A stretch of 64,000 bases of DNA. Origin: Patescibacteria group bacterium (GTDB lineage Bacteria > Patescibacteriota > JABMPQ01 > JAQVVF01). Shown piece after piece: positions 21,810 through 63,511 of this stretch. The position numbers and the translations under genes are program-made. The DNA lies in NCBI GenBank assembly GCA_041662665.1, contig JBAZSC010000001.1:321511-385510 (forward strand), given 5' to 3'. The notes under the pieces are model-generated. The model had not been told where the DNA came from. It searched no databases and saw only the letters and a program-made list of their open reading frames with translations. Positions within the stretch are counted from its first letter, which is position 1. Every line of letters begins with the position of its first letter.

Positions 21810-21909
21810 TGTGTTAGTCACTAATATCTTAATATCCGAATTTCCGAATATCTTCGTGTTTAAATAATGAGATATTAAGAAATTCGGAAATTAAGAAATT
21901 ATAATTTAA

Positions 21910-23293: not shown

Positions 23294-23403
23294 TAAATCC
23301 CAAATTACAAATTCCAAACAAATTACAAATAACAAGCCACAAAATAATTTTTGTAATTTGTATTTTGGATATTGTAATTTGTTTGGGATTTGAAATTTGT
23401 AAT
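23294..23403. repeat. Word-built inverted repeat (aaattac/aaatccc/aaattcc words) after atpD
   Basis: ctaaatcccaaattacaaattccaaacaaattacaaat... faces ...tgtaatttgtttgggatttgaaatttgtaatt. Pairing is imperfect and operates at the level of words. Confidence 0.7.
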
Positions 23404-23413
23404 TTTTTATAAA

Positions 23414-23839: not shown

Positions 23840-23965
23840 AATCCCAAATAACAAATCCCAAAAAACAAACAAATCACAAATTCCAAATCACAAACCTTCG
23901 CAGTCAACTTTTGTAATTTGTTTTTTGTAATTTGTTTGGGATTTGGGATTTGTAATTTTATTTTT

Positions 23966-29524: not shown

Positions 29525-29553
29525 TTGACATTTACATAGCTGTATGCTATAAT
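29525..29553 (+). promoter_or_regulatory. Consensus sigma70-type promoter of the Cys-rich lipoprotein cassette
   Basis: TTGACA (29525-29530), a 17-nt spacer, then TATAAT (29548-29553). Confidence 0.65.
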
Positions 29554-29593
29554 TAAAAAAGTTCAATCCAGCTGCAGCAGAGGAGGAAAGAAG

Positions 29594-29968
29594 ATGAGAA
29601 GAACACTAATAGCAGTGATTTTCTTCAATCTCATTGGATTTGGTTTTGGTTGTACTCTCAAACCACAGCAATGCCCGTCACAAGGTCTTAAGATTGATGA
29701 AGGACAAGAAAAAAAAAGCTTGCTCATTGTTGAAGAAGCAAAAACTAGCGATTGTTGTGATCCCATTACCCATGGATTGATGAGTACGATTCACGGACGA
29801 GAAACCTATTTCTTTGATAGTTGTCATGGAGACAAGCCATTATATCCTCTTTGCAAGTTTTCTGCAAAGCGCGAATGTTGCGACCGTGCAACAGGACGAT
29901 GGGTTGGTTCTGACGGTTATCTTTCGACGCTTGTAACATGTAGTGGAACAGTTTTTTGTACTTTGTAA
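29594..29968 (+). CDS. Small Cys-rich secreted/lipoprotein; SD-led cassette gene
   Basis: SD agaGGAGGaaagaag precedes the ATG. The signal peptide MRRTLIAVIFFNLIGFGFGC has a lipobox-like Cys, and there are about 10 further Cys residues. The terminator gggccaatgtggctc plus T-run follows. Confidence 0.65.
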   Translation: MRRTLIAVIFFNLIGFGFGCTLKPQQCPSQGLKIDEGQEKKSLLIVEEAKTSDCCDPITHGLMSTIHGRETYFFDSCHGDKPLYPLCKFSAKRECCDRATGRWVGSDGYLSTLVTCSGTVFCTL

Positions 29969-30012
29969 GGGCCAATGTGGCTCTTTTTTTCTATAAAAAT
30001 TGGTGCAATTCG

Positions 30013-34856: not shown

Positions 34857-34943
34857 AACTTATCTAATTAGTCTAACTAATCTAACTTATCTAATTAGTC
34901 TAACTAATCTAACTTATCTAATTAGTCTAACTAATCTAACTCG
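34857..34943. repeat. 27-bp tandem repeat, about 3.2 copies, each containing the palindrome ctaattag
   Basis: The unit aacttatctaattagtctaactaatct starts at 34857, 34884 and 34911. It lies in the divergent gap between the Elp3-like and methyltransferase genes. Confidence 0.85.
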
Positions 34944-38829: not shown

Positions 38830-38860
38830 AAAAAAAAGACCGACTCGGACGAGTCAGTCT
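38830..38860 (-). terminator. Intrinsic terminator of high-GC cassette C
   Basis: The minus strand reads agactgactcgtccgagtcggtct followed by T8. Confidence 0.7.
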
Positions 38861-38905
38861 AGGTAGGGTGCGAAAGGAACGGGTGTTGTGAGTGTGTGGG
38901 TAGGT

Positions 38906-39493
38906 CTATCGGGTGGGGGGGCTCAGCGTGTAGGTGTAGCGACCGGGGGCGAAGCTGATGTGCAGCTCTTCCTGGGTCACCATGCCGTCGCGGGGGACTG
39001 GCACGTTCACGGTGTCGAGCCTGTACAGCTCTTCACCCTTCTCGTTGACGTTGGCCCAGACGTTGCAGTAGGGTGTGGTCTGGTTGAAGAGGTTGACGAC
39101 ACGATCGGGCAGCTTGAGATCTTTTCCTGTCTGAGTGAGCACCAGCTGCAGGAACCTCTTCCTGCCACGCTTATCCTCACGCCAGAACCAGAAGGCATCC
39201 GTCACCTTGTAGCCAGCCATGCCGAGCTCGCTCAGGAGTGCGCTCATGTCGACCATCTGCCGATTGGCAGCGATGTTCGTGCCGGTGTCATCCATGCCGT
39301 CTCTCTTGACACCGAACTCGATTCCGAGATCCTTTGCCTCCTTGCGGTGCTTCGCAGCCACCGCCTTTGCATCGTACTCCTTCTGAGGGAGCAGAGCCTC
39401 GATCCAGCCGCCGATTCCGGCGACCTTCACGAGGATGATGAGGGGCATGAGCCCCAGACCTTCGAACTGATCAACCAGGACCGTGCGGCTCAT
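38906..39493 (-). CDS. High-GC (about 60%) SD-led ORF of unknown function, 195 aa (module C)
   Basis: Start reassigned to MSRTVLVDQFEG, preceded by acaGGAGGtttccg. Codons mostly end in G or C. There is one hydrophobic segment (LGLMPLIILVKVAGIGGWIEALL). I recognise no family. The plus-strand ORF 38888..39583 is its antisense shadow. Confidence 0.65.
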   Translation of the reverse strand: MSRTVLVDQFEGLGLMPLIILVKVAGIGGWIEALLPQKEYDAKAVAAKHRKEAKDLGIEFGVKRDGMDDTGTNIAANRQMVDMSALLSELGMAGYKVTDAFWFWREDKRGRKRFLQLVLTQTGKDLKLPDRVVNLFNQTTPYCNVWANVNEKGEELYRLDTVNVPVPRDGMVTQEELHISFAPGRYTYTLSPPTR

Positions 39494-39542
39494 CGGAAAC
39501 CTCCTGTCAGTGGTGGCACTCACCCCGATTCCAGGGCTTTTC

Positions 39543-39571
39543 ATCATATCACAGCACCCTATTTTTGTCAA
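39543..39571 (-). promoter_or_regulatory. Sigma70-type promoter of module C
   Basis: On the minus strand, TTGACA (39571-39566), a 17-nt spacer, then TATGAT (39548-39543). Confidence 0.6.
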
Positions 39572-39657
39572 TGGCATTTTTGAAGTGGGAAGTGGGATCT
39601 TGGGATATGAGAAATGGGAACCTTAAATAAGCCAAAAAAAGATATTTGTGCGATTAG

Positions 39658-44112: not shown

Positions 44113-44904
44113 ATGAAAATAATTGCAGGTATCAAATTTAATGTTTTAGACAAGATCTATAATTTTGACCAAAATAATATTATACTAAATAAGGGTGATA
44201 AGGTCATTGTTGAGACAGAACAAGGTACAGAAATTGGCACCGTTGTTTTTGCTAACAAAAATGTTGATGAAACAAAGCTTGAATTTGCTTTAAAGCCAAT
44301 TTTAAGAAAAGCAACAACAACTGATACTGAAAAGCTTGATAATTATAAGATTAAGCAGGAAGAAGCTTTAAAAGTATGCAAAGAATTAGTTGGCAAACAC
44401 AATTTAGATATGAAAATAGTTGCTGCTAATTATACTTTTGATGGTTCAAAAATAATTTTTTATTTTACTGCTGAAAGCAGAGTTGACTTCAGAGAATTAG
44501 TAAAAGACTTAACAAAAAAATTTCAAAAATCAATTCGCTTGCAACAAGTAGGATCCAGAGATGTTGCTGCAAAATGCGGCGGATGCGGAATGTGCGGTAA
44601 GGAATTATGTTGCACAAAATTCTTAAAAGATTTTGCTAGCATCACAACAGATATGGCACGAGAACAACAAATGGTTCAGCGAGGATCAGATAGAATTTCA
44701 GGTTGTTGCGGAAGATTATTATGTTGTTTAGCATACGAAACAGAATTATATCAAGATTTAGCTAAAGATTTTCCAACAGTTGGCAAAAGAGTTAGAACAA
44801 AACAAGGAGTTGGAACAGTTATTGGCAGAAATCTATTAACCAGAAATTTGGATATATTGCTTGATGATAAGACAAGAATATCAGTTAAGCTCCCGGAGAG
44901 ATAA
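44113..44904 (+). CDS. PSP1-domain protein (YaaT/RicT-like)
   Basis: The length, and the Cys cluster CGGCGMCGKELCC ... CCGRLLCCL near the C-terminus, are typical of the PSP1/RicT family. Confidence 0.7.
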   Translation: MKIIAGIKFNVLDKIYNFDQNNIILNKGDKVIVETEQGTEIGTVVFANKNVDETKLEFALKPILRKATTTDTEKLDNYKIKQEEALKVCKELVGKHNLDMKIVAANYTFDGSKIIFYFTAESRVDFRELVKDLTKKFQKSIRLQQVGSRDVAAKCGGCGMCGKELCCTKFLKDFASITTDMAREQQMVQRGSDRISGCCGRLLCCLAYETELYQDLAKDFPTVGKRVRTKQGVGTVIGRNLLTRNLDILLDDKTRISVKLPER

Positions 44905-45042
44905 TTTCTAATTATAAATTTCTAATTTCTATTAAATTCTTAATGAATTAATTTTCAAACCTAACGGCTAGTATAGACATTAGAAATTAATGCATTATTA
45001 ATTTAATAAAAATTAGAAATTAGAAATTGAAAATTAATAACG

Positions 45043-46226: not shown

Positions 46227-46336
46227 TTCGAAAATTACAAATGTCAAATTCCAAATTCCAAACAAATTACAAATCACAATATACAAAATCTTTGTAATTT
46301 GTTTGGAATTTGTTATTTGTAATTTTATTTAATCTC

Positions 46337-47089
46337 ATGTCTCTTTTATCACAGGAGCTAATTAAATTAGGTCTATCTGACAAAGAAGCAAAAGTATATT
46401 TGGCTTCATTGGAATTAGGATATGACACAGTTTTAAATATTGCAAAAAAAGCAGGGATCAATCGACCAACTGCTTATTTTATTTTAGAGTCATTACAAAA
46501 AAAGGGGATTGTTACAACTTTTGAAAAAGATAAAAAAACTTATTTTGCATCCGAATCTCCTGACAAGTTAGTTACATTATTAAATCAGCAAAAAGAAGAT
46601 CTTAATCAAAAGCAAAAAGAATTTGAAAATATTTTGCCAGAATTTAAAGCTTTATTTAATTTGCCAACAGAAAAACCAACTGTCAGATTCTTTGAAGGCA
46701 GGCAAGGATTGTTATCAATGCGCGAGGATTTTTTGAAAACTACAGACAAAAAAATTGAGGCAATGTATTGTCTAGATGATCTTAACAAAGTTTTTACTCC
46801 TGAAGAAAATGCAAAGTTTACAGACAGAAGAGCTGAAAAAAATATTGAAACTTTCGCTATATATACTTCAATCAATGGTCCAACAAAAAGACCAAAGGCT
46901 CCAGGTGAAAGACGTTTTATTCCTTTCGATAAATTTCCTGTGACTGCTGATATTACAATATATAATAATAAAGTTGCCATTGCATCTTTGAAAGGAAAGC
47001 TATCAGGAGTAATTATTGAAAATAAAGAAATTGCTAATACAGTACGTTCACTATTTTATTTAGGTTGGGAATCAGCCAAAAAAGTATAA
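46337..47089 (+). CDS. TrmB-family transcriptional regulator
   Basis: The start is moved to MSLLSQELIKLGLSDKEAKVYLASLELGYDTVLNIAKKAGINRPTAYFILESLQKKGIV, which is a TrmB-type winged HTH. Confidence 0.75.
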   Translation: MSLLSQELIKLGLSDKEAKVYLASLELGYDTVLNIAKKAGINRPTAYFILESLQKKGIVTTFEKDKKTYFASESPDKLVTLLNQQKEDLNQKQKEFENILPEFKALFNLPTEKPTVRFFEGRQGLLSMREDFLKTTDKKIEAMYCLDDLNKVFTPEENAKFTDRRAEKNIETFAIYTSINGPTKRPKAPGERRFIPFDKFPVTADITIYNNKVAIASLKGKLSGVIIENKEIANTVRSLFYLGWESAKKV

Positions 47090-47098
47090 GAACATGCT

Positions 47099-47963
47099 AG
47101 AAACTCGGTTTTCTATTAATCAAAAAAATAAACTTATTGTAAGTAAAAACAAGGTATAAAAAATAATCATTTAATTAAGATAAAACCGAGTTTCGCGTGA
47201 ATTCAAAAATAGAAATGCGCAAAACAAATTTTACAAATGAATCATTTTATCATATCTACAATCGCGGTACTGAAAAACGCGATATTTTTTTGCAAAATTA
47301 TGATTATTTTCAATTTATTAAATTATTAAGAAAATATAAAAATAATTTAGTTGAAATAATCTGCTATTGCTTAATGCCGAATCATTTTCATTTATTGCTA
47401 AAACAATTAAATAATAATGGAATCAGCAAGTTCATGCATTTATTAACAATAAGTTATGCAAAATATTTTAACAAAAAATATGATCATAGCGGAGTTTTAT
47501 TTCAGGGAAAATTTAAAGATGTCCAGATTTTGAGCTATATTCAATTGCTAAATATTTCAAAATACATCCATATAAATCCAGCTAAAGATCAGAATATTTT
47601 ATTAAAACAAAAAATAATTACATTAGAAAATTATCCTTGGTCTTCTTATAAAGATTATATAAATATCAGAAACGGAACATTATGTAATAAAACCGAAATA
47701 ATAAATTGTGTAGAAGGTAATTTTGTAAAAGAGTATAAAGAATTAATAAAGGCACATTTGATGAATTATAATGAGAGAAATTTGGATAAATTAATACTTG
47801 AATGAGTGAAATAGAAACTCGGTTTTCTATTAATCAAAAAAATAAACTTAATGTAAGTAAGAACAAGGTATGAAAAATAATCATTTAATTAAGATAAAAC
47901 CGAGTTTCATCATGTTGTAAATAATTGACACACGAAACTCGGTTTCTTCGGAAACCGAGTTTC
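47099..47963 (+). mobile_element. IS200/IS605-like (RAYT-type) Y1 transposase element with hairpin-forming flanks
   Basis: The transposase ORF is flanked by two 96-bp direct repeats (47099-47194 and 47813-47908). Each repeat is bounded by gaaactcggtttt ... aaaaccgagtttc. A third minimal hairpin gaaactcggtttcttcggaaaccgagtttc lies at 47934-47963. Confidence 0.75.
47197..47805 (+). CDS. IS200-like / REP-associated tyrosine transposase (HUH Y1 family)
   Basis: FYHIYNRGTEKRDIF, the HUH motif in CYCLMPNHFHLLLKQ, and YIHINPAK. The track start is GTG. An ATG 18 nt downstream is an alternative start. Confidence 0.8.
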   Translation: MNSKIEMRKTNFTNESFYHIYNRGTEKRDIFLQNYDYFQFIKLLRKYKNNLVEIICYCLMPNHFHLLLKQLNNNGISKFMHLLTISYAKYFNKKYDHSGVLFQGKFKDVQILSYIQLLNISKYIHINPAKDQNILLKQKIITLENYPWSSYKDYINIRNGTLCNKTEIINCVEGNFVKEYKELIKAHLMNYNERNLDKLILE

Positions 47964-47984
47964 AAAGAATGTGTTAATTTTCGC

Positions 47985-48245
47985 GCAAAATAAAACCGGG
48001 CAAAAGCTCGGTTAAGGGAACAAAGGGCAAAAAATCGATTCATCCAATTGGCGTTCATTTTATTGTCTTCTCCGTCAGGAGTTGGGGGAGTCGCTTGGCA
48101 CTTATAACTGTTAACTTTCAACTGTTAACTAGTTTTCAGTCGCCCATGACGTCCTCCTCTACCAATGGGGTAGAGGTTAGCATCGCCATAGTTTCAGGCG
48201 CGCCTTCCTCGACCCAGGGAACCAAAGATCAAGATGATTTATAAC
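47985..48245 (-). ncRNA. Candidate noncoding transcript with a GC-rich 5' domain
   Basis: It is bounded by a consensus promoter (48251-48278, minus strand) and a hairpin plus T-run (minus strand aaccgagcttttgcccggttttatttt, near 47990-48015). The GC-rich segment at 48135-48225 contains the hairpin cctctacc/ggtagagg and the palindrome aggcgcgcct. Confidence 0.3.
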
Positions 48246-48250
48246 AATGT

Positions 48251-48278
48251 ATTATAGCAAGCCTGTAGTATTTGTCAA
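48251..48278 (-). promoter_or_regulatory. Consensus sigma70-type promoter (minus strand)
   Basis: On the minus strand, TTGACA (48278-48273), a 16-nt spacer, then TATAAT (48256-48251). Confidence 0.6.
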
Positions 48279-48481
48279 TAGATTTGGACAATTTAGTGTA
48301 ATTAGTAATGAGTAACTAGTAATTAGGCGAAAAAACTTGCAAAATTATTAATACCTGATATTATCAAAATTGTCAGTAATAATAGACAAAATAAGCTAAA
48401 ATAGCTTGTTTTTATTTTGCCTTGTTTAAAGCAAAATATGTCAAAATATCGAAAAAGATAATAAATATTTGTAAAAACCTC

Positions 48482-48510
48482 TTGACATGATAAAAATAGA
48501 GTAATATAAT
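48482..48510 (+). promoter_or_regulatory. Perfect consensus sigma70 promoter (plus strand)
   Basis: TTGACA (48482-48487), a 17-nt spacer, then TATAAT (48505-48510). Confidence 0.65.
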
Positions 48511-48574
48511 GCAGAGTTCTAAGCTCAAACCAAGCTCATTCCAAAATGTCAATCAGAGCAAACTAGTTTAACAG

Positions 48575-48654
48575 TCTAACCAGTTTAGGTTAACCAGTCT
48601 AACTAGTCTAACCAGTTTAGGTTAACCAGTCTAACTAGTCTAACCAGTTTAACC
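48575..48654. repeat. 32-bp tandem repeat, about 2.5 copies
   Basis: The unit tctaaccagtttaggttaaccagtctaactag starts at 48575 and 48607, with a partial copy at 48639. There are no unique spacers. Confidence 0.85.
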
Positions 48655-48663
48655 GCATTTCCG

Positions 48664-48751
48664 TCTATTTATTAGAGGAGGTGAAATGGTCTCCAGGGAA
48701 TAAATCTTTTCTTTAGTCCTTGCTGAGCCACTTCGGCCTCTAATAAATGGG
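48664..48751 (+). ncRNA. Hairpin-closed structured element containing an SD-led 5-codon mini-ORF
   Basis: A 15-bp closing stem: tctatttattagagg (48664-48678) pairs with cctctaataaatggg (48737-48751). Inside is aGGAGGtgaaATGgtctccagggaaTAA (MVSRE), with an inner stem caggga/tccttg and a cttcgg loop. Confidence 0.35.
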
Positions 48752-48974
48752 CAGAATGAAATTTCCAATTACCAATTTCCAATTCACAATAAATTTTCAA
48801 TAAGCAATTTTCAATGACGACAGTGACGATTTGAAAATTAGTAATTGGTCATTTATTGTAAATTGATAATTGGAAATTAGAGATATGTAATCAGTAACTA
48901 GTAATCAAAAAATTGATTCCTAAATACTGATTGCGTGCGAGAGGGGACCAAGAGTCCTCGAGGAGGAAAGGACA

Positions 48975-49196
48975 ATGGCGAATTGCATCATCTGCCACCA
49001 GCGCGTTGCGAGCGGCGGTGACCGGCATGCCAAGGGGCAGTGTCCGGCGAAGAAGAAGGAGCGCGAGCAGAAGGAGAACGAGGTGCAGGCCGGCGATCTC
49101 GCGACCCCGGGTCGCGGAGACGTCGTGCCGCTGGCCGGCAAGACCAGCACCCAGCTCTCCAACAAGGGCAAGTCCCGGGGGTCCAAGTCGGGCTGA
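48975..49196 (+). CDS. High-GC SD-led small basic protein, 73 aa (module A)
   Basis: The SD cGAGGAGGaaaggaca precedes the ATG. Of the overlapping ORFs here, this is the frame I picked because its codons mostly end in G or C. The protein is MANCIICHQRV...GQCPAKKKEREQKE... I recognise no family. Confidence 0.55.
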   Translation: MANCIICHQRVASGGDRHAKGQCPAKKKEREQKENEVQAGDLATPGRGDVVPLAGKTSTQLSNKGKSRGSKSG

Positions 49197-49392
49197 GCCT
49201 GACACGACCCACAAGACGAGCCCAAGTACTAGGTTCTAGTGTCGTTCCGTTTCATCCCCAAGTTCCCCAGATTTTTCTTCAGTTTTCCGCCAGTACCTTC
49301 CATGCCAGACTCTTGTCTGGCCCCACCTGAAATAATAATGATTACATTGTTATTTGAGGCGGTACATTAAAAAATGATCAATTTACAATTTT

Positions 49393-49547
49393 TCACCCTT
49401 CGGGTGACCACCCGCAGGGTGGCAATAAATTACCAATTACCAATTTTCAAAGCGACGATGGTCGTAATTGGAAATTGTTCATTGAAAATTTATTGGAAAT
49501 TGCAAAATTGGTAATTGCCACCCTACGGGTGGTCACCCGAAGGGTGA
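49393..49547. repeat. About 155-nt composite inverted repeat with GC-rich self-complementary ends
   Basis: tcacccttcgggtgaccacccgcagggtggcaa ... ttgccaccctacgggtggtcacccgaagggtga. The AT-rich ccaatt/aattgg words sit in the middle. Confidence 0.8.
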
Positions 49548-49639
49548 GAAATTAGGGTTTGCGGTAAAGCAAAGATCTTAAAAAAGATTTTCGCCTTGCT
49601 GCAAAGTGCAGCCTATAGCAGAGAAGGAAAAGTAAACGA

Positions 49640-49816
49640 TGAACGATCAGATGGACGCGGCGGACCGGCGGATCATGGACGAAACGACTGTTCGGCTCGA
49701 AGGCCGGCAGGTCAAGTCCAGCCAGGGAGCTGGTTCCAGGTCGGCAGAAGTGCCAATCTGGAAGATCCGCGCGAGCCGTCGTGCTCTCCCCGCCATGGCA
49801 GTCTACGGCGACTAGA
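49640..49816 (+). CDS. Possible high-GC small ORF, 58 aa (module B)
   Basis: Below the ORF-track length cut-off. ATG at 49640 with only a weak SD (agaaGGAaaagtaaacg). The protein is MNDQMDAADRRIMDETTVRLEGRQVKSS..., and the frame has mostly G/C-ending codons. Confidence 0.35.
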
Positions 49817-50061
49817 CCTACCCCCAACTCTTCAGTTTTCCGCTCGTACCCTCCTGTGGTCACTTTTCGTGGCCACCTCAGCTTAAGCAACGATGTGATC
49901 GTTGAGTAAGTAGAGAACGTTACAAAATTATCAATTTCCAATTTACAATTCTCAATAAATTTTCAATGAACGATTTCCAATGGCGATACTCGGTCTGAAA
50001 ATTGAAAATTGGTAATTTATTGGAAATTGTAAAATTGATAATTGGAAATTAAATCTAGCTT

Positions 50062-50106
50062 TCAGCAGTTTGCCTCAAATTATTTTGAGACACACTATTG
50101 ATAGCT
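50062..50106 (+). promoter_or_regulatory. Conserved ~45-nt leader element, copy 1
   Basis: tcagcagtttgcctcaaattattttgagacacactattgatagc. It is about 80% identical to copy 2 and contains the hairpin ctcaaa/tttgag. Confidence 0.45.
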
Positions 50107-50148
50107 ACATCTCGTCCTTTCACCAACTGAAGCACACAAGGAGGAAAA

Positions 50149-50814
50149 ATGCCAAGTAAAGACAAGCCAAGACATGTTTTTGTTAATTGCTTGTTTCATG
50201 AAAACGAAAGGCTTACAGTCACCAACAAGGATGGTGAATTAAAAGCCTGGGGATTTGATGGCGATGTAATAAGTATCATCTCGGAATCCATGTTGCTTAG
50301 CATATCGGGTTCCAATCTGCAACTTGATAAAAGAAAAAAAGCATTGTGTAGATATTTAAAGCTTTTCTTCAACGAAGGAAAACAACCTCCAGCAATTTGT
50401 TTTGAGCATGCAAGGAAGTTGGAATCTGTGTTGTTGCAAATGCGACGATTTCTTCCTAAGGAAAAAGCTAATGTCCAGATTTCTATGATTCCATATCAAG
50501 AAAGTCTGGATAAATGGGCAATCTGGGTAGCCGAAGTAAAAAGAAATAGAGATATTGAAGCTACGAGATTGTGGCGTGAGATTATTTCTAAGCATTTTCC
50601 AGATGATGAAAGTATTGCAGACGAGCAAGACGCAAAAGTGCTTGCTGATCGTCTGTCTTCTGAATGTGTTAGAGAATTATTTGATAAGATACGCAATACT
50701 GCACTTTACCGCAAATCAGAAAAATCTGAATTGCTGAAACAGATCGGATTGTACTTAGCAGAAAAAGCGTATGAAGAAGCAAAAATAAAACATGAAATAG
50801 ATTCTTGGAAGTAG
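50149..50814 (+). CDS. Hypothetical protein, 221 aa; SD-led cassette gene
   Basis: The SD cAAGGAGGaaaa precedes the ATG. GC content is intermediate. I recognise no family. Confidence 0.6.
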   Translation: MPSKDKPRHVFVNCLFHENERLTVTNKDGELKAWGFDGDVISIISESMLLSISGSNLQLDKRKKALCRYLKLFFNEGKQPPAICFEHARKLESVLLQMRRFLPKEKANVQISMIPYQESLDKWAIWVAEVKRNRDIEATRLWREIISKHFPDDESIADEQDAKVLADRLSSECVRELFDKIRNTALYRKSEKSELLKQIGLYLAEKAYEEAKIKHEIDSWK

Positions 50815-50943
50815 ATGACTGCATTTTAACCTCTGTATGTTTCCAGTTTTTATCAAGTTTTTAATGAATAATTTGCAATAGTTTGAAAATTAATTCATTG
50901 AAAATTTAATAAAAATTAATAATTAGAAATTAAAAATTCGCTG

Positions 50944-50987
50944 TCAGCCTTTTGCCTCAAATCATTTGGAGACAAAAGATTGATAGC
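50944..50987 (+). promoter_or_regulatory. Conserved ~45-nt leader element, copy 2
   Basis: tcagccttttgcctcaaatcatttggagacaaaagattgatagc. It lies upstream of high-GC module D. Confidence 0.45.
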
Positions 50988-51247
50988 CTGTCCCGTACTA
51001 TGTTTCTGGTGAATATAAAAAAACATTGATTACTTTAGGAATTTAATCAATGCAACAAACAATATTTATTAGATACTTAGTATGGGATTAATGCTAGAAC
51101 ACTGACAACTTGGAAGGTAAAAATAATAGTCAAAAGTGTTAACTGTTAAGTGTTAATGGTTAACTGTTTGAAGTTGGCACATCGCGGCCAGGCAAGGCCG
51201 CGTTCGCGCGCGAGTAGATTCCGCTTGTGTCAGAGGAGGAGAGCGAC

Positions 51248-53515
51248 ATGTCGACCAACTGCGAGCCGAAGAGCGTCAGCACCGTCAACACCGTCACCGA
51301 GGAGAAGGAGGTGAAGCCCGCCCGGGTGCGCAAGCCCCGGGTGAAGGTCGAGAAGGAAGAGCAGGAGCAGTTCAACGAGGATGGCACGAAGAAGGATGTG
51401 AAGGACGAGGCCCCGCCCAAGAAGCGGAGCCACCACAAGAAGGTCGAGAAGTCCGTCGCCGTCGAGACCGAGACCGCCGAGCCCGCCCCGCCCGCCGAGT
51501 CCACCCCCAAGGTGGCGTCGGTGGCGGTGGTCGAGCAGCCGGTCCAGGTCGCCCCGCCCGCCGCGCCCCAGCCCGAGCCCCCCAAGAAGGGCGAGGTCGA
51601 GGACGTCAACGAGGACGAGGACAAGGACGGCGAGAGCGAGGGTGAGGACGAGGAGCAGGAGACCAGCGAGGAGGCGCTGGAGGACGCCCAGATCAACGAC
51701 CTGGAGTTCCAGAAGAAGATGAGCGAGCTCCCCCGGCACGAGCAGATCCGGCGGCAGAAGGCCCGCAACCGGGTCATCACGAGCAACCGGCGCAGCCGCA
51801 AGACGGCGGCGCAGGACAAGAACCGCGCGGAGCACAACGAGATGCGCGAGGCCGGGCGGCCGGAGGTGAAGATCACCATCCCGGACCCCCTGATCTGCAG
51901 CGCCCACGCCGGTGAAGTCCTGAAGCTCGAGGACGCCTACTCGCTGAACAGCAGCGTGGTCTACGAGCTGACCCAGGTGAGCCAGGAAGGCAAGACCGAG
52001 GCGCAGACCAAGATCCTGAAGTTCGTGGTGAGCAAGCTCGCTCCGCTGTTCCGGTTCAACTGCGAGACCATCCCGGCCTACTGCAAGACGGTGGTGGACG
52101 TGCTGGCGAAGAACATCGCGGCCGTCCAGCCCCTCATCGCGCACGAGAAGAAGGCGCGGTGGGAGAGCCGGATCGTCATGCCCTACGCGGCCGCGCTCCG
52201 GCACTTCGCCGAGAGCAAGGCCGCGGTCGAGGGCAAGCAGCAGAACGTCAAGGACCGGCAGAACAAGGAGGCGTGGGCCTGGTTCGACGAGAACATCGGC
52301 AAGTTTCACGCCGAGCTGGTCGGGCTGCGCAGCGTCGAGGAGATCGTCGGCAAGATCGACATCCTGAACGGCCTGAACGACAAGTGTCTCGACACCTTGC
52401 GCCACCACTTCCTCGAGACCCTGCCCGTGATGCGCTACAGCGAGCCCGGCAAGATGCTGGGTCAGCTGCTGCGCGAGCGGGGCAAGAAGTACGAGCAGGT
52501 GCAGATCGAGGAGCAGCGGGCCCGCAAGGCCGAGGCCGACGAGAAGCGCAGGAAGGAGGAAGAGAAGGCTCTGGCCGGGCTGGGCGAGCTCGAAGGGCTG
52601 TTCGGTGGCGAGGAGAAGCAGGGCGAGGAGCAGGACGAGGAGCCCAGCGAGCGTGACGAGAACGAGAAGCGGATCGGCAAGTGGCTGGAGAAGCTTGTCG
52701 GCGGGAAGATGCACAGCGCGGCCGGGCTGATGACGCCCAGCGCCCTGCGCGAGATCTTCGCCGCGGATCCGGGCGCCGAGGTCTACTCGGCCTGCCCGTT
52801 CAGCCAGCAGGCGCCGGGGACCCAGTACTCCACCTACGTGAACCGGAAGGGCGACAACGAGCCCCTCTTCGCGACGGTGACGGTCCCGACCCTCGTGGTC
52901 GAGACCGACGACGAGGGTCAACCGATCTGCGACGGCAAGGGGCGGCCCAAGCCGTGGATCAACCCCCGTACGAGCAAGACGCAGTACGAGGGGCAGATCG
53001 CGGTGCTGACGAAGCACGAGGCCCGCTGGGCCGCGTCGATCCGCATCCGCCAGATGGCCGAGGAGCAGGTGAACAACGGCCGGTACGACTCGCTGGAGGA
53101 GGCCATCAACGGCATCCATCAGGAAGTCAACCAGGCCAAGACCAACCTCTGGGCGGCCAAGAAGGAGTTCAACGAGGCCAAGGTCTCCGGCGACCAGAGC
53201 CGCATCGACGCGGCCGAGGAGCGCCTGAACCAGGCCAAGGAGGTCATGAACCATCTGAGCGACGACCGTCGTCCGTGGTACCAGGGGATGCTCGAGGGAA
53301 GCCTCGGTGTCCTCAAGTACTACGATCTCAAGAACACGGTCGAGATGCTCAACAAGCCCCGTGAAGAGCGGCCCGCCAAGCGCAACACGCGCGGCGGCGG
53401 GACCCACGGCAACTACGAGCAGGAGCAGTCCCAGGGCGCGAGCGCGGAAGAGCAGGAGGCCTTCTTCCGCAGCCAGAACAACCAGAGCTTCGCCAACAAG
53501 GCCCGCCAGGTCTGA
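51248..53515 (+). CDS. High-GC, GC3-saturated SD-led ORF of unknown function, 755 aa (module D)
   Basis: ATG at 51248 preceded by caGAGGAGGAGagcgac (the track start at 51227 is GTG). By my manual read, about 30-odd of ~755 codons end in A or T. The protein is K/E/Q/N-rich with an acidic/basic low-complexity N-terminal ~200 aa. I recognise no domain. Confidence 0.75.
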   Translation: MSTNCEPKSVSTVNTVTEEKEVKPARVRKPRVKVEKEEQEQFNEDGTKKDVKDEAPPKKRSHHKKVEKSVAVETETAEPAPPAESTPKVASVAVVEQPVQVAPPAAPQPEPPKKGEVEDVNEDEDKDGESEGEDEEQETSEEALEDAQINDLEFQKKMSELPRHEQIRRQKARNRVITSNRRSRKTAAQDKNRAEHNEMREAGRPEVKITIPDPLICSAHAGEVLKLEDAYSLNSSVVYELTQVSQEGKTEAQTKILKFVVSKLAPLFRFNCETIPAYCKTVVDVLAKNIAAVQPLIAHEKKARWESRIVMPYAAALRHFAESKAAVEGKQQNVKDRQNKEAWAWFDENIGKFHAELVGLRSVEEIVGKIDILNGLNDKCLDTLRHHFLETLPVMRYSEPGKMLGQLLRERGKKYEQVQIEEQRARKAEADEKRRKEEEKALAGLGELEGLFGGEEKQGEEQDEEPSERDENEKRIGKWLEKLVGGKMHSAAGLMTPSALREIFAADPGAEVYSACPFSQQAPGTQYSTYVNRKGDNEPLFATVTVPTLVVETDDEGQPICDGKGRPKPWINPRTSKTQYEGQIAVLTKHEARWAASIRIRQMAEEQVNNGRYDSLEEAINGIHQEVNQAKTNLWAAKKEFNEAKVSGDQSRIDAAEERLNQAKEVMNHLSDDRRPWYQGMLEGSLGVLKYYDLKNTVEMLNKPREERPAKRNTRGGGTHGNYEQEQSQGASAEEQEAFFRSQNNQSFANKARQV

Positions 53516-53621
53516 ACCTTCCAACAACCCGCCCCCGGGACAAGTCCAAGCTTTAAGCTTGTAACCTTGCTCCCTGGCGCGCGGCACACTACCATTCCAG
53601 TTCTTTCATTCCCGTTCCTTC

Positions 53622-53650
53622 AGAAGACCCTTACCGGTCTTCTTTTTTTT
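53622..53650 (+). terminator. Intrinsic terminator of module D
   Basis: agaagaccc tta ccggtcttct followed by T8. Confidence 0.7.
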
Positions 53651-53701
53651 CACTAAGTTATCAGTTAACAGTTGAAAGTTATAAGTTACGTCAATTTACT
53701 C

Positions 53702-53730
53702 TTGCCATTTTTCAAGATTCCTGCTATCAT
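53702..53730 (+). promoter_or_regulatory. Sigma70-type promoter of rpmG
   Basis: TTGCCA (53702-53707), a 17-nt spacer, then TATCAT (53725-53730). Confidence 0.5.
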
Positions 53731-53773
53731 TGCAGTATAGCTTATAACTTACAACTTTTAACTTATAACTTCG

Positions 53774-53929
53774 ATGCCACAAGATAATCTCATTAAATTA
53801 GAATGCACTGTTTGCAAGAGCATTAATTATTATTCTCGCAAGAACAAAAAAGTTCTTAAAAATAAAATTGAGATCAAAAAATTCTGCAAGAAATGCAAGA
53901 AACATACTCTACACAAAGAGACTAAATAA
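53774..53929 (+). CDS. rpmG: 50S ribosomal protein L33
   Basis: Below the ORF-track cut-off. It translates to MPQDNLIKLECTVCKSINYYSRKNKKVLKNKIEIKKFCKKCKKHTLHKETK, a typical Zn-ribbon L33. Confidence 0.9.
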   Translation: MPQDNLIKLECTVCKSINYYSRKNKKVLKNKIEIKKFCKKCKKHTLHKETK

Positions 53930-54043
53930 CAAATTCCAAATTCCAAACAAATCCCAAATTACAAAAAACAAACCAATAAAACAATTTTGTAGTTTGTGAT
54001 TTGTAATTTGTTTGTGTTTTTGGGATTTGGGATTTTAACACAA

Positions 54044-54114
54044 GGGGATGTAGTTAAATGGTATAACTGCGGTCTCCAAAACCGCTGTCGAGGGTTCGAT
54101 TCCTTCCATCCCCG
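54044..54114 (+). tRNA. tRNA-Trp(CCA)
   Basis: Acceptor GGGGATG/CATCCCC, anticodon loop CTCCAAA, and T-loop TTCGATT. The usual rpmG-tRNA-Trp neighbourhood is present. Confidence 0.9.
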
Positions 54115-54138
54115 TTCTATTTATGCTACAATATTAAT

Positions 54139-54328
54139 ATGAGCACAAATAGTCGGGAAAATTTTTTAAAGATCTATGCCAATATACCATTGAGTATTAG
54201 GCAAGAGATTGTTATAACTTTAGATGATAAGCCAATCACATGGGATGTGGCTTTTTTTTGAGATTCAAAATAGTACTAAGAAAAGCAAAATAATTTTAGA
54301 AAAATTAGAATTATTAGAAATTATTTAA
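54139..54328 (+). pseudogene. Small ORF split by a frameshift at a T8 homopolymer
   Basis: MSTNSRENFLKIYANIPLSIRQEIVITLDDKPITWDVAFF stops at the TGA at 54259. With T7 instead of T8 (54252-54259) it would continue EIQNSTKKSKIILEKLELLEII to the TAA at 54326. Confidence 0.4.
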
Positions 54329-54337
54329 GATAATAAT

Positions 54338-54616
54338 ATGAAAAATAACGACACTTTAATTAAAAAAGCTGATGTTCAAAAAATCGCTGACAACGGAACA
54401 AGAATTTACGAAAAAGTAAAAACAGAATATGATCCAAAAGAAAAAGGAAAATTTTTAGCAATTGATATTGATAGCAAAAAATTATATTTAGGAAAAACAA
54501 GCATTGAGGCAGTTGAAAAGGCAAAGCAAGTACATCCAAACAAAGTTTTTTTTGTTGTTAAAATAGGCTACGATACCGTAGAATCAATGGCAAGATTATT
54601 TTCTAAAACAAAATAA
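54338..54616 (+). CDS. Small protein of the type found paired with retropepsin-like proteases (DUF5678-like; tentative)
   Basis: 92 aa. Its stop codon is 2 nt before the start of the protease-like gene. The family name is from memory and unverified. Confidence 0.4.
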   Translation: MKNNDTLIKKADVQKIADNGTRIYEKVKTEYDPKEKGKFLAIDIDSKKLYLGKTSIEAVEKAKQVHPNKVFFVVKIGYDTVESMARLFSKTK

Positions 54617-56783: not shown

Positions 56784-56954
56784 TTTTTTTACGAGAATTA
56801 TGAATAATGAATCAGGAATCATGACTTGAATAATGAGTAATGAATTTAGAATTCGATATTCTTAATTCATGCTTCAAATCATGATTCATAATTCGTTATT
56901 CATAATTCTTTTTTGATTGACTTTATTTTAATCTCAGAATAAACTATACCAGTT

Positions 56955-59106: not shown

Positions 59107-60573
59107 ATGAATCAAAATCCTACAGAAAATTTAAAAAAATATTTAGATTTAGCGAGAAAATCAAAAACTTTTGAATTTCTTAATATCTTAATATCAGAAT
59201 ATCCGAAGGCTAGTATCTATTTAGTCGGTGGTTTTGTGCGTGACCAAATTTTAGGTTTAGAATCCAAAGATTTAGATTTTGTTGTTACAAAAATTAAGGC
59301 AGATGATCTGAAAAAATTTTTAGGAAAATATGGTTCTGTAGAATTAGTCGGTGCTTCGTTTGGTGTTTTTAAATTTGTGCCAAAAGAATCAGAATTTATG
59401 AATCAGAAAATGGAAGCTTTTGATATTGCTCTTCCTCGAACAGAAAAATCTTTAGGAACTGGCGCATATCGAGATTTTGATGTCCAATCAGATCCAGAAT
59501 TGCCAATAGATGTTGATTTATCAAGACGCGATTTGACAATCAATGCCATTGCTTATGATATCAAAAATGATTCTATAGTTGATCCATATTTTGGTCAAAA
59601 AGATTTAGCTAATAAAATAATCAAAGCAGTTGGCGAGCCAAAACAAAGATTCCAAGAAGATTATTCCAGAATTTTAAGGGCAATAAGATTTGCTCTAAAA
59701 TTTAATTTTCAAATTGAAGATAATACTTGGCAAGCAATTAAAGATGACGCTCCAAAAATTTTAGATGCAGTTCCATTTGAAACAATTTCTAAAGAATTAT
59801 TGAAATCTTTAGACGCAAATCCAGTTAGATTTTTAGATCTTTATGATCAAAGCAAATTATTAAATATAATTTTGCCAGAAGTAGAAGAATGCAAAGGTGT
59901 TATTCAGCCAAAAGAATTTCATGAAGAAGGCGATGTTTATGAACATACAAAATTAGCGTTAACTTTTATTCCCAAAAATTCTACTGTCAGATTTAAACTA
60001 GCAACTTTATTGCATGACATTGGCAAACCAAGCACAACTAAAACTCCAGAAAAAGATGGTGTTGAAAGAGTGCGCTCTGACGAACATGCCGAAGTCGGTG
60101 CAGAAATTACTGGCTATATATGCAATCGCTTAAAATTGCCAAATAATTTATCAAACGAAATAGTTTGGCTGGTAAAATACCACATGTTTTTTGTTTCAGG
60201 AAAAGTTGAAGATATGCGTCCAAACACAATCAAAAAATATTTTATTGATAATCCAAAATTAGGTGATGAACTTTTGGATTTATATTATGTTGATACAAAG
60301 GCATCATTTGGTCCAACTCAAGAAAAAAATTTAGCAAGAATTACTGAAGTTCGCGATTATATTAATAATATGCGTGAACAATTTAGAAAATCAGAAATAA
60401 AAACTTTCCGACATGTTATCGATGGACAAGATATTATGAAAGAATTTAATTTAAAACCTGGAAAAGAAATTGGAGAATATTTGGAAAAAGCAGATAAATT
60501 TATTTTGGAATTTGTTACCAAAAATGGGGAAGAGCCTAGTAAAGAAGAAGTCCTAAAAAGTCTAAAATCCTAA
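59107..60573 (+). CDS. cca: CCA-adding enzyme / tRNA nucleotidyltransferase with HD domain
   Basis: YLVGGFVRDQILGLESKDLDF, RRDLTINAIAY and LLHDIGKP. Confidence 0.8.
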   Translation: MNQNPTENLKKYLDLARKSKTFEFLNILISEYPKASIYLVGGFVRDQILGLESKDLDFVVTKIKADDLKKFLGKYGSVELVGASFGVFKFVPKESEFMNQKMEAFDIALPRTEKSLGTGAYRDFDVQSDPELPIDVDLSRRDLTINAIAYDIKNDSIVDPYFGQKDLANKIIKAVGEPKQRFQEDYSRILRAIRFALKFNFQIEDNTWQAIKDDAPKILDAVPFETISKELLKSLDANPVRFLDLYDQSKLLNIILPEVEECKGVIQPKEFHEEGDVYEHTKLALTFIPKNSTVRFKLATLLHDIGKPSTTKTPEKDGVERVRSDEHAEVGAEITGYICNRLKLPNNLSNEIVWLVKYHMFFVSGKVEDMRPNTIKKYFIDNPKLGDELLDLYYVDTKASFGPTQEKNLARITEVRDYINNMREQFRKSEIKTFRHVIDGQDIMKEFNLKPGKEIGEYLEKADKFILEFVTKNGEEPSKEEVLKSLKS

Positions 60574-60702
60574 ATTCTAAATCCTAAACAAATTCAAATG
60601 ACTAAAATCAAAATGATCAAAAGTCGATTTGAAATTTAGTATTTGAATTTTTAATTTGTTTAGAGTTTAGGATTTAGTGCTTTGAGTTTTAATTAAAAAA
60701 AT

Positions 60703-62323: not shown

Positions 62324-63409
62324 ATGTTAAAAATTGTAATTCTAGCAGGAGGAACAGGAACTCGTTTTTGGCCACAAAGTAGAGAATCAACTCCAAAACA
62401 ATTCAGTAAAATCATTGCTGACAAGACAATGATTGAATTAACTTATGAAAGGTTTTTGGCTGATTTCAAAAAAGAAGATATCTATTTTTCAACCAATCAA
62501 AAATTCGCCAAAATTATTAAAAAAATATTTCCAAAAGTTAGCAAGGAAAATATTATTATTGAGCCAGAAAAAAGAGATACAGCACCAGCAATGGGTTTTG
62601 TTGCTGCATATTTAGACAACAAATTTCCAAATGATCCTATGGTTTTTATTCCATCAGATCATTATATTGCAGATGTTAAAAAATTTATCCAATCATTAAA
62701 GTTGGCAAGTAAATTTATTGAAAAAACTGGCAAGATGATGGACATTGCAATTACTCCAAATTTTCCAAGCACCGTTTTAGGATACACTCATATTGGCAAA
62801 AAAAGCCAAGAAACAAATGGCATTAAAATTTATGAATTTAAAGGTCATGTTGAAAAGCCAGATTACAAAACAGCAGAACGATATTTAAAAGCTGGCGATT
62901 ATTTATGGCATGCTAATTTTTATATGTGGACTCCAAAATTATTTTTAGAAGCTTACAAAAAATATTCACCAATCCATTACAAATCTTTAGCCAAAATTAA
63001 AGAATATTTAAAAAACAAAGATCTAAAAAAGGCAGATGATGAATTTAAGAAAATGCCAAAAGATTCAATTGATTATGCTATTACTGAAAAAATGGATCCA
63101 AAAGATGTCTTAATTATCAAAGGTGAATTTGGCTGGAGTGATATTGGCGCTTGGGATGTTTTGTATGATCAATTATCAAAAGAACAAGATGCTTCAAAGA
63201 ATATGGTCAAAGCAGTTTGGGAAGGTTTAGATACAACAGGCTGTTTAGTTTACGGCCCAAAGGATAAAATCATTGCCACAATTGGTGTAGATGATATGAT
63301 CATTATCGACACTCCTGATGCCTTATTAGTCTGTCCGCAAAGCAGAGCCCAAGATGTCAAGAAAATTGTGGAGAGTTTGAAAGCGAAGAAGAAGGAGAAA
63401 TATTTATAA
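62324..63409 (+). CDS. Sugar-phosphate nucleotidyltransferase (mannose-1-phosphate guanylyltransferase-like)
   Basis: The N-terminus ILAGGTGTRFWPQSRESTPKQF is typical of ManC/CpsB-type NTP transferases. Confidence 0.8.
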   Translation: MLKIVILAGGTGTRFWPQSRESTPKQFSKIIADKTMIELTYERFLADFKKEDIYFSTNQKFAKIIKKIFPKVSKENIIIEPEKRDTAPAMGFVAAYLDNKFPNDPMVFIPSDHYIADVKKFIQSLKLASKFIEKTGKMMDIAITPNFPSTVLGYTHIGKKSQETNGIKIYEFKGHVEKPDYKTAERYLKAGDYLWHANFYMWTPKLFLEAYKKYSPIHYKSLAKIKEYLKNKDLKKADDEFKKMPKDSIDYAITEKMDPKDVLIIKGEFGWSDIGAWDVLYDQLSKEQDASKNMVKAVWEGLDTTGCLVYGPKDKIIATIGVDDMIIIDTPDALLVCPQSRAQDVKKIVESLKAKKKEKYL

Positions 63410-63511
63410 TGAAGTATGAATAATGAATTATGAATTATGACTAGAATAATGAATCTAGAATAGAGAATCATTCTTTATTCATTATTCTTAATTCATAATT
63501 CTTGATTTAAC

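Follow-up and report, generated by a model that had tools for sequence, protein, structure and literature searches.

A conserved hairpin in the proposed leader of GC-rich orphan genes of a Patescibacteria genome, a candidate leader RNA behind a perfect consensus promoter

Background

RNA hairpins processed by RNase III are found in phage T7 (R1.1) and in the rnc and pnp leaders of Escherichia coli, and such sites need little sequence conservation. A 5' mRNA stabiliser, STAB-SD, is reportedly present in cry3A of Bacillus thuringiensis, where a Shine-Dalgarno (SD)-like sequence lies far upstream in the leader and can do without a start codon behind it. The intergenic spacers of proteobacteria are filled by REP, BIME and REPIN palindromes and those of filamentous cyanobacteria by heptamer STRR repeats. 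In this work we analysed a leader that has points in common with all of these systems. It lies on the plus strand of a 64,000-nt stretch of DNA (contig JBAZSC010000001.1; the whole stretch is called here the window) from a genome of the Patescibacteria (Candidate Phyla Radiation, CPR), between a consensus promoter at 48482-48510 and the first of several GC-rich orphan genes, and it holds a hairpin of ~98 nt (48659-48756) that is conserved in four genomes.

What looks new at this locus is this ~98-nt conserved leader hairpin behind a conserved perfect promoter, a candidate leader RNA and not a classical attenuator. We tentatively favour the reading that promoter and hairpin form a conserved 5' control region and that the hairpin is a new cis-acting, post-transcriptional element for the SD-led genes downstream, an account that seems to us quite possible, with less confidence in any particular sub-mechanism. 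In such a system the consensus promoter would start a long untranslated leader in which only a 38-nt start-proximal block and the ~98-nt unbranched hairpin would be constrained in sequence. The hairpin would lock a copy of the ribosome-binding motif of the cluster, AGAGGAGG, against an anti-SD-like CCUCU and would present an invariant pyrimidine-rich apical stem-loop. It could act in cis after transcription, either through recognition by a protein, by a ribonuclease or by the 30S subunit or as a decoy of the SD/anti-SD type, and the stability or the ribosome access of the downstream SD-dependent messages would be set by it. A 32-bp tandem repeat and a hairpin built of short repeated words would occupy two fast-turnover slots flanking it.

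Should the hairpin prove to be a cis-regulatory RNA, it would join the few candidate leader RNA motifs known from Patescibacteria; by copying the SD motif of a small gene class, a motif that ordinary genes of this genome lack, it would offer a handle on two translation-initiation regimes in such organisms. The genes behind it are unusual in themselves: they are orphans, with only three or four genomes encoding them in a search space of billions of proteins, their GC content at third codon positions (GC3) is nearly saturated in an AT-rich genome, and they diverge much faster than their own untranslated regions (UTRs).

Results and Discussion

The locus and its relatives

The locus is known from four distinct genomes, namely that of the window and three relatives. 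One relative (L002) is the contig of the sole homologue of module A, the first GC-rich gene of the window. Another (L003, the Patescibacteria metagenome-assembled genome STF1_73) was the one extra genome found when species-representative genome contigs were scanned for the invariant hairpin core, and the third (L005) was reached, along with L006, via the third cluster of an exhaustive HMMER search with module C. A DNA-pattern scan of metagenomes for the invariant hairpin core gave only a chance match in an unrelated gene (L004), and viral contigs scanned for this core and for module C gave no match. An independent ENA metagenome contig of 7.7 kb (L001) was 99.6% identical by BLAST to positions 46614-54364 of the window, and therefore the junctions between AT-rich and GC-rich DNA are not assembly artefacts.

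The order is common to all four genomes: a divergent pair of perfect promoters, the start-proximal block, a first variable slot, the hairpin, a second variable slot and the first GC-rich gene, which carries its own conserved 5' UTR. The parts of the leader in the window, including an open reading frame (ORF) of five codons, are the following.

48482-48510, plus strand: predicted sigma-70-type promoter TTGACA-N17-TATAAT, matching the consensus at 12/12 positions, perfect in all four genomes
48511-48554, plus strand: start-proximal block ending in the invariant GTCAATC (48548-48554), from the four-genome alignment
48561-48651, plus strand: slot 1, a 32-bp tandem repeat (Tandem Repeats Finder, TRF: period 32, 2.9 copies, 95% matches, score 161)
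48659-48756, plus strand: rod-like RNA hairpin of ~98 nt, predicted from stable folds in four genomes and an RNAalifold consensus, 81-97% identity
48659-48678 with 48737-48756, plus strand: P1 of the hairpin, from the fold
48682-48689 with 48728-48735, plus strand: P2 of the hairpin, from the fold
48691-48704 with 48712-48727, plus strand: P3 of the hairpin, from the fold
48705-48711, plus strand: apical loop of the hairpin, from the fold
48674-48681, plus strand: invariant SD-like AGAGGAGG, half of it paired with CCUCU (48737-48741), likewise invariant, in the 3' arm
48686-48703, plus strand: mini-ORF ATG GTC TCC AGG GAA TAA, five codons, in the window but not conserved
48761-48884, plus strand: slot 2, a word hairpin of AATTTCC-type words, member of a repeat family
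48885-48936, plus strand: second, smaller hairpin AATCAGTA...TACTGATT inside slot 2, from minimum free energy folds

Conservation and structure of the hairpin

The entire leader (48517-48980) is far more structured than shuffled sequence (-133.4 kcal/mol, z = -6.8). In the window its start-proximal block is 90% identical to that of L003 and 69% to that of L002, and GTCAATC follows the -10 box at a distance of 37-38 nt in each of the four genomes. Counted from TCCGT to the 3' end, the hairpin is 94-95 nt long throughout, at pairwise identities of 81-97%, and its flanks are non-homologous between genomes, slot 1 ranging from 41 to 120 nt and slot 2 from 70 to 180 nt. The element at 48664-48751, which an earlier sequence-only reading of this DNA had proposed to compare in related genomes, is thus kept as part of this hairpin in each of them. 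The window and L003 copies of the hairpin are different at 8% of their positions, and the adjacent host gene of the TrmB family, a syntenic neighbour of the locus, has a synonymous divergence (dS) of 0.82. In L003, where module A is absent, the hairpin precedes module B, so that it follows the cluster and not a particular gene.

The same reading had described a hairpin-closed element with an AGGAGG-type SD half buried in it, and the fold bears this out. The window copy forms a rod of -40.1 kcal/mol (z = -5.1), and none of 200 shuffles was as stable. P1 is made of a 16-bp closing stem (48663-48678/48737-48752) with three more pairs below it (48659-48661/48754-48756), and an AGG internal loop lies between P1 and P2. 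The same unbranched rod is predicted for all four copies at -38.6 to -47.4 kcal/mol, with z values from -5.1 to -8.4 in the three copies tested against shuffles. Upper P1, where UAUUAGAGG pairs with CCUCUAAUA, is invariant, as are the AGG internal loop, P3 and the apical loop, and the last two include the pyrimidine-rich apical stem-loop CCAGGGAAU.AAUCUUUUCUUUAGUCC. Variation falls on the base of P1 and on P2, where changes mostly keep pairing: two pairs show compensatory double changes (C-G to U-A and G-C to A-U), together with several changes from G.U to A-U or G-C. In the consensus of the four sequences 94% of the cells are paired, compared with 32-54% in slid controls. Moreover, the fold of the plus strand is stabler than that of the minus strand in three of the four genomes, by virtue of G.U pairs.

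The SD-like motif

In every predicted fold GAGG of AGAGGAGG is paired with CCUC and its AGG lies in the internal loop, and the helix of AGAGGAGG with CCUCU is invariant in the four genomes. The same AGAGGAGG is the SD motif of a small gene class in the window, which comprises modules A, C and D, an ORF of 221 aa, the ORF at 29594, and the TPR and MYG1 genes; the site of module B is weaker and purine-rich. The SD-led starts are 29594, 40708 (minus), 42353 (minus), 39496 (minus), 48975, 49639, 50149 and 51248, with the motif (A)GAGGAGG. The 3' end of the 16S rRNA lies outside the window.

In Bacteroidetes, rpsU is a specific case of SD-dependent regulation. The ribosomes of Bacteroidetes carry the anti-SD and the genes are without SD (PMC7797042), and the anti-SD motif is missing in about half of Parcubacteria (PMC9297842). 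The window resembles Bacteroidetes in that 37 of its 39 ordinary genes have no SD, the exceptions being MYG1 and TPR, and a small gene class and the leader hairpin carry a strong one. Unlike the case of rpsU, the SD-led genes here are orphans and not ribosomal protein genes.

The leader also compares with STAB-SD in being long and in holding a strong SD-like sequence well ahead of the true start codon, and AGAGGAGG is invariant in all four genomes while the start codon behind it is variable or absent. Counted from the predicted 5' end, the copy lies at ~160-190 nt in the window, L003 and L005 and at ~100 nt in L002. It differs from STAB-SD in being half paired within a long helix and hence not freely accessible in the predicted folds, and binding of the 30S subunit is uncertain here because the organism's own genes are without SD sites. 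The unbranched helix of ~38 bp with small internal loops, in what would be the untranslated leader of a multi-gene transcript, is reminiscent of RNase III-processed hairpins. Unlike such sites, the apical third and the helix of AGAGGAGG with CCUCU are invariant here.

The promoter and the probable extent of the transcript

With consensus hexamers, a spacing within 16-18 nt and conservation in relatives, the site at 48482-48510 is by its sequence a sigma-70-type promoter. The perfect copies elsewhere are at 1516-1544 in L003, 108-136 in L005 and 517-545 in L002. The minus-strand promoter that was earlier placed about 200 bp away was also recovered (TTGACA-N16-TATAAT at 48278-48251), the two -35 boxes being 204 bp apart. 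Perfect TTGACA-N16-18-TATAAT sites number four in the 64 kb against 0.10 expected from shuffles, and SD-led units lie downstream of all four. In two SD-led units, at 29525-29990 and 39571-38830, a strong SD goes together with a TTGACA/TATAAT promoter, perfect or nearly so, and with a canonical terminator.

Canonical terminators do occur in this genome: modules C and D are each followed by one, and so is a tiny unit, at 48393-48418. Between the promoter at 48482 and the terminator that follows module C no terminator-like hairpin with a U-tract was found, and from the hairpin to module C there is a single terminator-like match, inside the 221-aa ORF, compared with 2.9 in shuffles. The first canonical terminator downstream of the promoter is this one.

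53622-53650, plus strand: canonical intrinsic terminator, a GC-rich stem with a T8 run, conserved in L003 (4808-4829)

The earlier failure to find a separate promoter for module A was repeated here, as no promoter-like match occurs in 48885-48975 and the nearest is a 9/12 match inside the palindrome. Modules A (optional), B and C make up the lineage-specific cluster, whose end is probably the terminator at 53622. Since promoter and hairpin are a conserved unit and neither a canonical terminator nor a comparable promoter lies between, a long structured leader that serves the GC-rich genes is the most economical account. This part of what had been proposed from the sequence stands, with promoter and hairpin preceding the first GC-rich gene in all four genomes; the mechanisms that had been attached to it are either rejected or unsupported.

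The variable slots

That reading had also treated the tandem repeat, the SD-led element and a ccaatt/aattgg word hairpin as three elements of one leader unit. All are present, and nevertheless the first and the last do not behave as parts of such a unit, the repeat being variable in copy number and the word hairpin belonging to a palindrome type found genome-wide. The repeat had been given as about 2.5 copies at 48575-48654, and by TRF it extends over 48561-48651 with 2.9 copies. An alignment of L001 with the window over 7.7 kb shows only the loss of one 32-bp unit (48573-48604) and one single-nucleotide polymorphism; because exactly one unit is missing, the repeat is a within-species copy-number variant. 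Slot 1 is occupied in L003 and L005 by a 120-nt word hairpin made from different words and in L002 by 41 nt of short direct repeats. A second word-built tandem repeat of ~3 copies of a ~27-bp unit (TTATCTAATTAGTCTAACTAATCTAAC) was seen at ~34862-34940, in the spacer from which the Elp3-like gene and the gene starting at 34955 diverge.

The arms of the word hairpin in slot 2 (48761-48814/48831-48884) are of 54 nt each and 78% complementary around a loop of 16 nt, and copies of its family are located at 49423-49517, 49925-50051, 50885-50938 and 1826-1947. Slot 2 holds a large hairpin in every genome, different in each lineage and unrelated in sequence. A direct scan of the 64 kb gave 28 long ungapped inverted repeats, compared with 0-1 in shuffles, and ~20 of them are word hairpins. 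These are nearly all intergenic, and many begin a few bases past a stop codon and fill the spacer to the next start. Nearly every intergenic spacer holds an imperfect palindrome of ~70-120 nt composed of 7-nt words from several unrelated word families (for example 21822-21901, 23295-23405, 23846-23958, 44902-45036, 46239-46325, 53655-53771, 56794-56909, 60570-60677 and 63406-63499), and in the related genomes the positions of the palindromes are kept and the words differ.

The word hairpin is in this sense a dispersed intergenic imperfect palindrome of the REP/REPIN type. The repeats of the window resemble REP, BIME, REPIN and STRR elements in being ~100-nt imperfect palindromes or repeats of 7-9-nt words, often directly after stop codons and with quick turnover. 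They are unlike them in that several unrelated word families coexist and that the host belongs to the Patescibacteria. They also differ in sequence from the REP-like hairpin (GAAACTCGGTTTC) that flanks the local RAYT-type transposase gene, to which they are unrelated. We propose that both the 32-bp repeat and the word hairpin locally represent intergenic repeats that occur genome-wide, without a sequence-specific role. Neither these two nor the mini-ORF are specific parts of a regulatory device, and the word hairpins as a genome-wide phenomenon merit separate study. The literature search returned no description of these repeats, or of the genes behind the leader, in Patescibacteria.

The gene of this RAYT/IS200-like Y1 transposase (REP-associated tyrosine transposase) is at 47197-47805 and is flanked by direct repeats of 97 bp (47098-47194/47812-47908, 97% identical). 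Both repeats are themselves hairpins on GAAACTCGGTTTTC, another palindrome of this word is present at 47925-47975, and the whole insert is missing from the orthologous site in L003.

Alternative explanations

A structured leader between a strong promoter and the first gene, which in the window copy also holds an SD and a short ORF, calls to mind attenuators (trp, pyrBI, ermC) and riboswitches, and the sequence-only reading had suggested a leader-peptide sensor, an attenuator or a metabolite riboswitch that switches between termination and read-through at ~48885. The SD-led mini-ORF of five codons is indeed there, its ATG at an ideal spacing from a strong SD, and the core hairpin around it is conserved. 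The ORF, however, is not: L002 has no start codon, L003 has an ATG with a 38-codon frame, L005 has a GTG start, and in L003 and L005 TTA replaces the stop codon TAA and the frame reads on. No U-run was found 3' of the hairpin or of the word hairpin in any of the four genomes, and a terminator scan of 47800-51300 found no terminator-like site in the leader. No conserved, mutually exclusive anti-terminator pairing was found either, the flanks of the hairpin that could supply it being different in sequence and length between genomes. Leader-peptide and terminator attenuation are rejected because the ORF is unconserved, a terminator-like site is lacking and the flanks are non-homologous. The comparison with Rfam that had been suggested gave only four tRNAs in the whole window at the gathering score, and at E <= 10 over 47800-50200 nothing overlapping 48655-48760, the other matches being at chance level. 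A riboswitch is unsupported because the element is an unbranched rod with no multi-helix junction, an atypical shape for an aptamer even with invariant nucleotides in its apical part, and matches no family. Switching of any of these kinds is thus very unlikely. A stand-alone small RNA gene is also unlikely, if somewhat less so. In this case the block and the hairpin would form a non-coding RNA of ~240-370 nt with its 3' end set or processed at the slot-2 hairpin, the GC-rich genes would be transcribed separately, and the RNA may act in trans, for instance with its pyrimidine-rich loop on SD regions. In every genome a large hairpin does come next after the element, complementarity to purine-rich SD regions in general is a property of the invariant apical loop, and a second short unit with promoter and terminator just upstream gives the impression that the spacer holds small transcription units. 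Nevertheless the slot-2 hairpins are without a U-tract in a genome that ends its units with canonical terminators, a comparable promoter between slot 2 and the first gene is lacking, and word hairpins also occur between normally co-transcribed genes, as at 21822-21901, where one separates the two ORFs after atpA, the second of which encodes the other ATP-synthase subunit of the alpha/beta type.

The conservation could instead reside in the DNA, the element being an operator for a protein or a recombination handle within a set of conserved non-coding scaffolds, with divergent gene bodies exchanged between them. L003 and L005 form a mosaic in which leader, UTRs and terminator are 80-99% identical and the bodies of the module ORFs only ~50%, module A is present or absent just downstream, and a TrmB-family regulator gene stands next to the locus. 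However, changes in the stems pass through G.U intermediates and the plus strand folds better in three of the four genomes, which fits RNA better; the insertion point of module A is after slot 2 and not at the hairpin, and an interrupted palindrome of 38 bp far exceeds the typical length of an operator. We regard this explanation as distinctly improbable. Fairly improbable too is the absence of any specific function, by which the hairpin would be a repeat-derived palindrome conserved only through the recent spread of the segment between lineages. The genome is full of intergenic palindromes, and between L003 and L005 the whole leader, including the word hairpin of slot 1, is 96-99% identical compared with 78% in neighbouring host-like genes. 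Against a neutral origin, the element persists at constant length in the more distant copies of the window and L002 with both flanks replaced, and its variable positions concentrate in the stems and mostly preserve pairing. In addition it is not composed of heptamer words, and it is present once per locus: neither a model (R1) built from the four elements nor an approximate string search found a second copy in the window or in the loci.

Several observations weigh against the reading that we favour, a cis-acting leader hairpin for the downstream SD-led genes. The identity of the L003 and L005 leaders, being above that of the neighbouring genes, indicates a recent exchange of the segment, and a part of the conservation may therefore be free of selection. 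Only four hairpin sequences are at hand, and those of L003 and L005 are 97% identical within the element. With these four, measures of covariation are no higher than in column shuffles, so that the structure rests on thermodynamics and a few compensatory changes. The half-buried SD copy argues against simple loading of 30S subunits. The apical loop can pair over 7-10 bp with the ribosome-binding sites of the modules (-4 to -10.4 kcal/mol, compared with a host-gene mean of -2.1), and such pairing is a weak idea of function, as the complementarity is unspecific: any strong purine-rich SD scores equally, and the best pairings among 39 host control genes (-10.5, -9.3 and -7.2 kcal/mol; the SD-led MYG1 and TPR are included) reach the range of the modules. 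We infer the co-transcription of the leader with the modules from the absence of signals in the sequence; its action as RNA and its mechanism are likewise inferred. Finally, a weak conserved promoter-like site lies upstream of module C, and the leader may therefore control only modules A and B.

A wider interpretation, possible but doubtful, is that the leader controls a hypervariable locus of a kind not described before, with a conserved non-coding scaffold and fast-diverging GC-rich orphan genes, and is the control module in it. The perfect promoter, the SD-mimic hairpin, the UTR hairpins of each gene and the terminator would frame the genes, whose bodies would diverge or be swapped far faster than the flanking host genes. 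In such a locus the copy-number-variable repeat of the leader might tune expression.

The GC-rich modules

The GC content of the 64-kb window is ~31%, and its genes include those for F-type ATP synthase subunits, TruD, an Elp3-like radical-SAM protein, MYG1 and TrmB-type proteins. Four GC-rich modules of 59-67% GC stand out, at 48900-49340 (A), 49560-49900 (B), 51170-53650 (C) and 38830-39575 (D, minus strand). Their GC3 is 0.74-0.96, compared with ~0.2 in the host genes, and all encode orphan proteins. The following features belong to the cluster behind the leader.

48937-48974, plus strand: 5' UTR of module A with the motif TTGCG.G.GAG.GGGA, common to L002 and L005, a small hairpin and the SD GAGGAGG (48960-48966)
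48975-49196, plus strand: module A ORF, 73 aa, with a CxxC...GGD...C motif and a basic tail, GC3 0.88, absent from L003
49639-49815, plus strand: module B ORF, 58 aa, present in all four genomes and the first gene after the leader in L003
51248-53515, plus strand: module C ORF, 755 aa, orphan, GC3 0.96, the last gene before the first canonical terminator

The SD of module A has a strength of -11.6 kcal/mol and its product is annotated at NCBI as a hypothetical protein. In 5.8 billion protein clusters only two proteins, i.e. one homologue, were found for it, and relative to L002 its nonsynonymous divergence (dN) is 0.27 and its dS 0.69. Module B has a dN/dS of ~0.24-0.33, which corresponds to purifying selection. 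For module C the exhaustive HMMER search gave three clusters in 1.84 billion representatives; a word-indexed search with the full-length protein returned only the query, the low-complexity N-terminus having swamped the search. Between the window and L003 module C has a dN of 0.70 and a dS of 0.61 (dN/dS ~1), and residue identity is 33% for module C compared with 88% for TrmB and 98% for L33. Searches with a module B profile and with the module A protein recovered only genomes already known. Pfam, PHROGs, PADLOC, NCBIfam and PDB sequence searches with modules A-D and the 221-aa ORF gave no credible function, and an AlphaFold model of module C from a three-sequence alignment was unusable (predicted local distance difference test, pLDDT, of 51).

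Modules A, B and C are syntenic in the relatives, and their extreme composition is kept despite a dS of ~0.6-0.9. Their UTRs are 80-92% conserved, compared with a nucleotide identity of ~50% in the coding bodies. On the wider interpretation given above, the persistence of this composition over four lineages may be due to recombination-driven GC-biased conversion or to a separate SD-dependent translation regime.

Minor observations on the locus

Between the two divergent promoters a tiny conserved unit was noted (48337-48436 in the window, ~1369-1465 in L003, 371-470 in L002 and 1-62 in L005). It starts with a promoter-like TTGCAA-16-TATTAT at 48337-48364, followed by ~30 nt of conserved sequence and by a terminator (48393-48418) formed by a hairpin and a T-run. 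The shape of this terminator is kept between genomes while its stems vary (AAGCT/AGCTT, TTGTGCT/AGCACAA and AAGC/GCTT), and it overlaps the invariant palindrome TTTTGCCTTGTTTAAAGCAAAA (48415-48436). The unit could be a gene for an RNA of ~50 nt, an operator or both. Pairing of this small RNA with the 5' arm of the leader hairpin was considered and dropped, as the 11-bp match with one bulge is not conserved in L003 and L002.

On the minus strand the promoter at 48278-48251 opens another conserved unit (48278-48030 in the window, 1311-1025 in L003 and ~312-60 in L002), which has the same anatomy as the plus-strand leader and a hairpin whose 3' arm is AGAGGAGG (48160-48153). This hairpin is followed by a tiny ORF, ATG GGC GAC TGA, at 48147-48136, which reads ATG GGC GAT TGA in L002 and ATG GGC GAC GGA GAC TGA in L003. 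The unit has no Rfam match and heads toward the 3' end of the TrmB-type gene.

Modules A and B have non-coding boundary motifs in common. Their 5' UTRs open with (G/T)TTGCGG (48937-48950 and 49555-49575), and their 3' boundaries carry CTTCAGTTTTCCGC..GTACC.TCC (49270-49300 and 49838-49865), then a small hairpin and a second, AT-rich hairpin. These common motifs suggest a cassette-like scaffold around unrelated ORFs. An integron-like cassette array was rejected on reading the sequence, with neither an integrase nor attC-type core sites in it. Between modules A and B lies a G+C-rich inverted repeat of 40 nt and 95% complementarity (49387-49426/49514-49553; CACCCTTCGGGTGACCACCCGCAGGGTGGCAAT), and as it encloses a word hairpin a nested double hairpin results. 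The AT-rich orphan ORF of 221 aa (50149-50814), which has a strong SD, is placed between modules B and C in the lineage of the window only. It is bracketed by direct repeats of 60 nt (50046-50105/50928-50987, 78% identical), which are present as a single copy in L002 and L003.

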